Part shown: piece by piece, positions 1,413 to 2,090 of the stretch | How the letters are laid out: the number at the start of each line of letters is the position of its first letter | Numbering within the stretch: position 1 is the first letter of the stretch | From: a virus | Taxonomy: Duplodnaviria; Heunggongvirae; Uroviricota; Caudoviricetes | Virus record (IMG/VR): IMGVR_UViG_2877291059_000004 | Reading direction: 5' to 3' (one strand) | Length of the DNA: 3,663 nucleotides | Translations under genes and position numbers: made by a program | The notes under the pieces: model-generated | The model's database searches: none | Seen by the model: the letters and a program-made list of their open reading frames with translations, nothing else | What the model was told of the DNA's origin: nothing

Positions 1413-2090
1413 TCAGTAGTGATGTAGTGAAGGAGGTAATTCTTTGTTCTTAAGTCTTACCCATGCAGAAAGATTCGTTGGTCCGTCTGGCTCATTAATA
1501 TCAACATCTCGTGTGTGATTGATTAAAACGTCTCTCGCCATTCCGATAACATACGAGAACTCATGACCGTAGTCGTGGCATCTGCCGGAATAGTTAGACT
1601 GAATTTGTCTTAGCGCCGGATACAGTTCGCGGAATAATGCCTGTGAGCGGTTGGCATAATCCCACAACCATACCAGACTGTTTGCATCTTTTGCAGAAAG
1701 CTCGCTGGTTTTCTTCTCGTGATGACCTGCGCTTTTCGAAGTCTGGCTGAAATAGCAGTCTTCCAGTTTTTCGAACACGTCCCACGCCTGATCGGTTTCG
1801 AGCATTTTGGCGTGGCGTGCGGCTCCGCGTTCTGTCCAGAGGATGAGGGAGCGGGCATTTTTACCAACTAACCCGATTGTTTCGGGTCTGTTCTTAAACT
1901 CGCGTAATTCGTTTTTTTCAATTTTAAAGTAATGCTTTCCTACCACGAATCGCATCGTGTTGTTCAGAAAATTATCAGAAATGTTTTTGATTTTTGTTCC
2001 GTATAACTGCGCCAGAAGTTCAGTTGTAATAACGCGGATCTGGTTGTGGGTGATTGCAGGAAGAGTGTCGACAGAAATTTGAGTGAGCAT
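1413..2090 (-). CDS. Phage antirepressor-like protein with an ORF6N/KilA-N-type N-terminal domain; C-terminal half unassigned
   Basis: The long ORF 2276-1413 has a non-protein-like N-terminal extension. The ATG at 2090 is preceded by GGAG 8 nt upstream and gives 225 aa starting [31 protein letters not shown]. The stretch [21 protein letters not shown]...[33 protein letters not shown] fits my recollection of the ORF6N pattern. Residues ~110-225 match no family I recognise. Confidence 0.65.

Follow-up and report, generated by a model that had tools for sequence, protein, structure and literature searches.

The window analyzed here is a whole stretch of 3,663 nucleotides (nt) from the IMG/VR virus record IMGVR_UViG_2877291059_000004 (Duplodnaviria; Heunggongvirae; Uroviricota; Caudoviricetes). 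Its genes are arranged in the order ninB, ninE, a toxin-antitoxin pair, a leader, ant, and roi, and ant, on the minus strand, is the subject of this analysis. It is an already catalogued prophage antirepressor gene, whose domains, regulatory RNAs, and genomic module have all been described and annotated before. Of 5426 complete E. coli genomes, ~1450 carry related DNA, as do 320 phage records, mostly of Shiga toxin (Stx) phages. The coding sequence of ant and the domains of its product are located as follows.

1413..2090, minus strand: ant coding sequence, 225 amino acids (aa) and a stop codon (open reading frame, ORF, and its translation); a two-domain phage antirepressor, ortholog of Phi24B Ant.
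1803..2054, minus strand: ORF6N domain, aa 13-96 (Pfam PF10543, E 1.5e-20).
1416..1727, minus strand: C-terminal module of the P22 Ant type, aa 122-225 (PF10548; 91/104 identity to P22-type Ant).
1500-1718, minus strand: Pfam core of the P22_AR_C domain, aa 125-197 (PF10548, E 2e-28).

An earlier note on this DNA, made from its letters alone, had claimed an ORF at 1413..2090, and a frame of 225 codons plus a stop is indeed present on the minus strand. A Shine-Dalgarno sequence, GGAG, lies 8 nt 5' of the ATG at 2090, which is the aligned start of both Phi24B Ant and Gifsy-1 AnrP. The note had allowed that a wrong frame or start might leave the C-terminal half untranslated; the frame of this half is not in doubt. 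Over its full length, the protein falls into PHROG 377, 'anti-repressor Ant' (E 3e-76), and no NCBIfam model matched it. Its alignment with Phi24B Ant runs end to end without gaps, with 186 of 225 residues identical (83%). An out-of-frame ORF of 50-53 aa at 1964-2125 (minus strand) overlaps the ant start and has an ATG at 2116 with AAGGTGG 5 nt upstream. It was rejected as a gene because its ATG is missing in Gifsy-1, Phi24B, YYZ-2008, and VT2-Sakai.

The C-terminal ~115 residues, which the earlier note held to match nothing, carry a named domain. The Pfam family P22_AR_C (PF10548) is matched over its full profile, positions 1-73 of 73, with 98.7 bits against a gathering score of 22.4, and the C-terminal half taken alone also matches PHROG 245, 'anti-repressor Ant'. 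In a BLASTP comparison with the 300-aa Ant protein of the P22-type phage SF3, aa 197-300 of the latter match aa 122-225 of the window protein with 91 of 104 residues identical (88%), and no similarity was seen outside aa 122-225 of the window protein. A tblastn search of phage genomes with aa 109-225 returned 230 records; among these, P22 and phages resembling it reach 87.5% identity across aa 122-225. For the counterpart in the closest E. coli genome, RefSeq gives the name 'P22AR C-terminal domain-containing protein', and the GenBank note on the Phi24B ortholog mentions the P22 AR C-terminal domain, pfam 10548, plus orf6N similarity.

An AlphaFold2 model of aa 117-225 contains one long and three shorter helices (mean predicted local distance difference test score, pLDDT, 83.7; predicted template modeling score, pTM, 0.72). 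The same region of the full-length model has a pLDDT of 86-97, and the module is predicted to be a helical bundle. Sequence searches of the PDB, by phmmer with the protein and by hmmsearch with the family profile, gave nothing meaningful, and a Foldseek search against viral models gave only another P22_AR_C protein. Because these searches yielded no informative relative, P22_AR_C is a recognized domain, but structurally and biochemically uncharacterized at the domain level. The earlier note had named a confident match to a well-characterized domain as the result that would count against it. Such a match was found in so far as the domain is recognized and named, but not in so far as neither a solved structure nor domain-level biochemistry was found. 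Two candidates for diverged copies of P22_AR_C were compared with it by hhalign and rejected, namely the 67-aa tail of AnrP (probability 0.3%) and the KilAC domain of Roi (probability 0.2%).

The P22_AR_C family is small, with 34 clusters at 50% identity (E <= 1e-3) in an exhaustive HMMER search of 1.84 billion cluster representatives. According to Pfam, P22_AR_C in these cluster proteins follows P22_AR_N, ORF6N, Bro-N, KilA-N, or AntA; stand-alone P22_AR_C proteins of 115-145 aa are also present. The expectation that ORF6N and KilA-N domains are joined to exchangeable C-terminal modules therefore holds, and the search for this module on other N-terminal domains, proposed in the same place, places it behind five domain types. 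P22_AR_C has been listed among the domain-swapping domains of the 'Bro network' (PMC10111431). The module is often 86-93% identical behind unlike N-termini, which points to recent cassette exchange. In one cluster representative, P0122 (254 aa), the last 45 positions of P22_AR_C are fused to a LysR helix-turn-helix (HTH) domain and part of a LysR substrate-binding domain. This architecture is probably not real, being either a junction produced by prophage insertion or decay, or a gene-calling artefact.

The N-terminal half was correctly assigned in the earlier note to the ORF6N type. PF10543 is matched at aa 13-96 with 73.7 bits against a gathering score of 27.8, over profile positions 4-86 of 86. 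In a BLASTP comparison with AnrP of the Salmonella prophage Gifsy-1 (STM2616, 187 aa), 109 of 120 residues are identical (91%) over aa 1-120, and the likeness ends abruptly at ~aa 120. ORF6N is the only Pfam domain of AnrP. Judged by these alignments, the window protein is a natural mosaic of an AnrP-type N-terminal half and a P22 Ant-type C-terminal half, both coming from antirepressors that were studied experimentally, with the junction near aa 118-122.

Upstream of ant lies a leader with two predicted structured RNAs and an upstream ORF (uORF). Its elements, together with the terminator that follows ant, are the following.

2336..2365, minus strand: sigma-70-like promoter, TTGACG, 18-nt spacer, TATATT (promoter scan, 10/12 matches).
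2290..2342, minus strand: putative a1/b1 target motif of C4, overlapping the 5' half of IsrK (RF03163, 45.3 bits, just below the gathering score).
2253..2329, minus strand: IsrK-type small RNA (sRNA) with hairpins a1 and b1 and a Rho-independent terminator (Rfam RF01394, 70.6 bits, gathering score 50, full model).
2298..2304, minus strand: b1, UUGAGAC, in the loop of the second IsrK hairpin; exact complement of b'.
2257-2274, minus strand: stem of the IsrK terminator (terminator scan).
2142..2226, minus strand: C4-type antisense RNA within the ant leader (RF01695, 75.9 bits, gathering score 45, positions 1-87 of 87).
2091..2222, minus strand: leader uORF, the equivalent of orf45, with its ATG (2220-2222) inside C4; it runs in frame into ant.
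2164..2170, minus strand: b', GUCUCAA, in a single-stranded stretch of C4 (from the sequence).
2132..2138, minus strand: b2, UUGAGAC, in the loop of a CCACC/GGUGG hairpin 3' of C4 (from the sequence).
2122..2149, minus strand: leader inverted repeat CCACC(N18)GGUGG, both arms of which are kept in all seven leaders.
1376..1395, minus strand: Rho-independent terminator between ant and roi (scan: 8-bp stem, 5 GC pairs, T run).

The promoter scan puts the transcription start at ~2329, the 5' end of IsrK, and both promoter hexamers are kept in Gifsy-1, Phi24B, and four more relatives. In the minimum free energy fold of C4, an outer stem of 17 bp encloses two inner hairpins. The 5' arm of the CCACC repeat doubles as the 3' strand of this outer stem; therefore, two alternative pairings are possible. 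The terminators on either side of ant and the inverted repeat in the leader were already seen in the earlier note and are present (2274..2257, 1395..1376, and 2122-2149). They were under-interpreted there, since the upstream terminator is that of IsrK and the repeat belongs to C4 and the target hairpin downstream of it.

The sites b1, b', and b2 are exact complements and co-vary in seven leaders, in which three sequence versions are observed.

UUGAGAC (b1, b2) with GUCUCAA (b'): the window and E. coli RMDEC465.
UUAGCAC (b1, b2) with GUGCUAA (b'): Phi24B, YYZ-2008, and pPE4.
UUGGCGU (b1, b2) with ACGCCAA (b'): Gifsy-1 and VT2-Sakai.

An exchange of the specificity determinants as one set is suggested by pPE4, which joins flanks resembling those of the window to b sites of the Phi24B type. 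The pPE4 leader (PP818812.1, 15567-15859), which is 92% identical to the enterobacterial IsrK/C4 leader studied here and is followed by an AnrP/Ant-like start, was deposited as 'Actinobacillus phage vB_Apl-pPE4', an unexpected host label given such close DNA identity. In VT2-Sakai, compensatory changes are seen in the first inner hairpin of C4.

The leader of the window differs from its relatives in the uORF. The codon at 2139-2141 (minus strand) is TTA, whereas the closest relative, E. coli RMDEC465, has a TGA stop at this position, and because of this change the uORF is in frame with ant. All six genomes fetched for the exact protein have TTA here (6/6), and the change is unlike all six relatives compared. 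The joined uORF-ant reading comprises 269 aa from the ATG at 2222 and 287 aa from the ATG at 2276. Since the frame is open upstream to both of these ATGs, an N-terminally extended Ant isoform is possible in this lineage. Among the relatives, the uORF varies in length.

Gifsy-1: 45 aa, the stop overlapping the anrP ATG (ATGA).
Phi24B, YYZ-2008, and pPE4: 31 aa.
E. coli RMDEC465 (closest genome): 27 aa.

The closest studied counterpart of the window gene is ant of the Stx2 phage Phi24B (vB_EcoP_24B, ADN68426.1), which also encodes 225 aa with ORF6N and P22_AR_C, lies between ninE and roi, and has a leader with IsrK and C4. The ant-roi pair is also found in the Stx phages VT2-Sakai, Min27, and YYZ-2008. 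Phi24B differs in its b sites (UUAGCAC, versus UUGAGAC in the window), in its separate 31-aa uORF, which in the window is fused, and in having no HigB/HigA-like toxin-antitoxin pair between ninE and the promoter; the host element of the window, in turn, is decayed. Deletion of ant in Phi24B reduced pR'-lux activity to 27-56% of the wild type after norfloxacin, and pBAD-ant partly restored it, while superinfection immunity was unaffected (PMC3064807). In a later paper, Phi24B Ant was termed a 'lytic induction enhancer' (PMC3430580).

The leader finds an experimentally dissected model in the isrK-orf45-anrP-isrJ locus of Gifsy-1 (Hershko-Shalev et al. 2016). The promoter, IsrK, a C4-like RNA, and the uORF start are collinear in the two loci, the leaders align throughout, and the three Rfam families placed on the window leader (isrK, C4, and, just short of its gathering score there, a1b1) also precede anrP. 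The C4-like RNA of Gifsy-1 is probably STnc1160 of PMC4825925. In Gifsy-1, PisrK drives anrP transcription; IsrK mostly ends at its own terminator, and the read-through RNA is translationally silent; the short IsrK opens the orf45 ribosome-binding site in trans, and anrP is translated by coupling (PMC4825925). Pairing of IsrK G28/G31 with C162/C159 was tested there by mutation (PMC4825925), and these base pairs fall within b1 and b'. Expression of AnrP raised antQ mRNA and induced Gifsy-1 (PMC4825925). The two systems differ in that AnrP has 187 aa and an unrelated tail without P22_AR_C, the orf45 stop overlaps the anrP start, and the b-site sequence is another one. A search for isrJ downstream of the window ant gave no match at E <= 1.

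Two classical loci share parts of this arrangement. In Salmonella phage P22, the immI antirepressor Ant consists of P22_AR_N and P22_AR_C; its C-terminal 104 residues are 88% identical to those of the window protein, and both proteins are called antirepressors. No similarity to the ORF6N half was seen in the first 196 residues of P22 Ant (P22_AR_N), and Pfam finds no P22_AR_N match in the window protein. In SF3, a phage of the P22 type, the ant gene belongs to the 'ant moron' of the late operon, where arc and repressor-type genes precede it and the tailspike gene follows, and the P22-type locus is under the control of mnt, arc, and the sar RNA (PMC2629481). The window ant, unlike this late-operon locus, lies in a nin region behind an IsrK/C4 leader. 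The second parallel is immI of P1 and P7 (c4-icd-ant1/ant2), where a C4-family RNA is found upstream of, and co-transcribed with, an antirepressor gene, with duplicated target sites flanking it and a short ORF between, and where the C4 RNA controls ant (PMC8201110). The window differs in that no homology of its uORF to icd was seen within the tests made, and the IsrK terminator and the logic of trans-activation come from the Gifsy-1 model. The model for P1 immI is one of repression.

Downstream of ant, roi (616..1344, minus strand) is a second antirepressor-like gene, whose product has a Rha N-terminal domain (PF09669, E 1.2e-9) and a KilAC/ANT C-terminal domain (PF03374, E 1.6e-33). Roi is annotated beside ant in Phi24B, VT2-Sakai, and YYZ-2008, and the order ninE, leader, ant, roi is common to RMDEC465 and Phi24B. 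Between ninE and the IsrK promoter, on the strand opposite to ant (2411-3038, plus strand), lie genes for a Gp49/HigB-like toxin (PF05973, E 7e-26) and an HTH_3 antitoxin, which overlap by 11 nt. ArgO145 has a toxin-antitoxin pair of other gene sizes at the same spot (L007, 386-897), and Phi24B has none; the gap between ninE and the IsrK promoter looks like an insertion hotspot for morons.

The exact protein is encoded on 22 public contigs, including chromosomes of 4.34-4.39 Mb. Window positions 521-3663 are 100% identical to five of six fetched loci and differ by one base from the sixth. These loci (L011-L016, e.g., CP061527 1386573-1393250) contain, in this order, an integrase, an insertion sequence (IS) with an IS3-family transposase, ninB, ninE, the toxin-antitoxin pair, ant, roi, a NUMOD4 fragment, IS1, and host ABC-transporter genes. 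Within the fetched flanks of 3 kb per side, no cI or other repressor, cro, or Q gene was found. The source locus is a decayed, IS-flanked prophage remnant. Because this stretch holds no repressor or Q gene, any present-day activity of Ant would have to be exerted in trans, on other prophages. Within positions 1-520 of the window lies a fragment of an IS1N-like transposase (97% identity to IS1). It contains a tandem duplication of 141-143 bp, the copies of which are 100% identical at 25-93/168-236 and 98% identical at 108-152/249-293. Neither this duplication nor the junction at ~520 occurs in the six genomes with an exact or nearly exact match to 521-3663; the cause is a difference between strains or an assembly artefact.

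From the observed domain identities, the orthology, and the RNA elements with their covariation, we read the gene with good confidence as ant, the IsrK/C4-gated antirepressor gene of an ant-roi module. The module belongs to the nin region of a lambdoid prophage resembling Stx phages, and the Ant protein would inactivate a CI/C2-type repressor. In the mechanism we favor, the sigma-70 promoter (2365-2336) would give rise to the IsrK sRNA, which would mostly end at its own terminator (2274-2253). The read-through RNA would carry C4 (2226-2142), and b' would pair with b1, upstream in IsrK, and with b2, downstream, so that the region of the uORF and the ant start would be folded and translationally silent. 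In trans, free IsrK would compete for b', so that the uORF ribosome-binding site would open and ant would be translated. In Gifsy-1 the antirepressor gene is translated by coupling; here, with the uORF in frame, direct read-through may contribute as well. Ant would then bind the CI/C2-type prophage repressor non-covalently and inactivate it, with faster derepression and late-gene expression as the outcome, and P22_AR_C would serve as a portable protein-protein interaction module for repressor targeting, oligomerization, or both. According to the Phi24B paper, which cites the work on P22, P22 Ant acts on, or binds, the repressor protein. We infer non-covalent inactivation of a C2/CI repressor by the window protein because its C-terminal domain is 88% identical to that of P22-type Ant; repressor binding, and the domain that would carry it, are to be understood in the same way.

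Several points weigh against this reading. The function proposed for the window protein itself derives from its relatives. P22 Ant has only the C-terminal half in common with it and AnrP only the N-terminal half, yet both show phenotypes of the antirepressor type; the activity is therefore not assignable to one half on the present data. The effect in Phi24B was modest and quantitative, and physical binding of CI was not demonstrated there (PMC3064807), while the authors of the Gifsy-1 study leave open that AnrP acts through 'activated transcription activity' (PMC4825925). With neither a repressor gene nor Q in the stretch fetched around the matching loci, ant may be inactive at present. On the RNA side, the a1/b1 motif (RF03163) falls 1.4 bits short of its gathering score (45.3 versus 46.7 bits), and its Gifsy-1 homolog reaches 48.1 bits. 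In RNAduplex comparisons, shuffled sequences reached the observed energy in 19% of cases for C4 with IsrK and in 7% for C4 with the leader, and the energy for IsrK with the leader was no better than in shuffled controls; however, whole-molecule RNAduplex ignores intramolecular structure and is uninformative here, and we relied on the exact co-varying 7-mers instead.

Other explanations of the locus account for parts of these observations. The gene may be an inert relic in its source genome, intact only because the prophage decayed recently. The setting would suit this: the exact sequence is flanked by an integrase side that an IS interrupts and by IS1, only ninB, ninE, the toxin-antitoxin pair, ant, roi, and the NUMOD4 fragment are left, cI, cro, and Q are missing from the 3 kb fetched on either side, and the TGA to TTA change in the leader is unlike all six relatives compared. 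On the other hand, the ORF, the promoter, both RNAs, b1, b', b2, and the two terminators have all stayed intact, and trans-acting antirepressors working across prophages are reported from Salmonella (PMC3121763). We regard an inert relic as rather unlikely, although worth considering; moreover, it concerns the current use of the gene and leaves its identity unchanged. Clearly less probable is a sequence-specific DNA-binding regulator or activator, in which ORF6N would bind DNA, P22_AR_C would dimerize, and phage operons would be switched on directly. P22 Ant, the only biochemically studied bearer of P22_AR_C, acts on the repressor protein according to the source citing it, the behavior of Phi24B Ant is that of a derepression helper, and no operator-like target is evident.

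The suggestion of the earlier note that the C-terminal ~115 residues form an unrecognized effector or regulatory domain retains next to no probability. Its remaining support is that the domain has no solved structure and no informative structural neighbor and belongs to a small family of 34 clusters. As to recognition, it is already refuted by the full-profile match to PF10548, the 88% identity to P22-type Ant, the naming in RefSeq and GenBank, and the listing in the 'Bro network' (PMC10111431). A further scenario extends the antirepressor reading. Here P22_AR_C would be a self-contained, portable cassette for repressor targeting or oligomerization, of a fold class that has no solved representative, and a long uORF-Ant form would be made beside the short Ant, altering the gating by IsrK and C4. 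We consider this combination doubtful. Long and short Ant made from one frame would resemble Ant1 and Ant2 of P1.

As a discovery the finding matters little, since it is already known; what value is left is practical. P22_AR_C, a domain of a classical antirepressor, is still without a structure or a domain-level function. AnrP with the same N-terminal half, P22 Ant with the same C-terminal half, and the window protein with both would constitute a natural domain-swap series for mapping repressor binding. Among the IsrK/C4 leaders of Stx phages, Gifsy-1, and the window remnant, no fewer than three specificity types with co-varying sites can be told apart, which bears on cross-talk between co-resident prophages and, therefore, on the induction of Stx phages.

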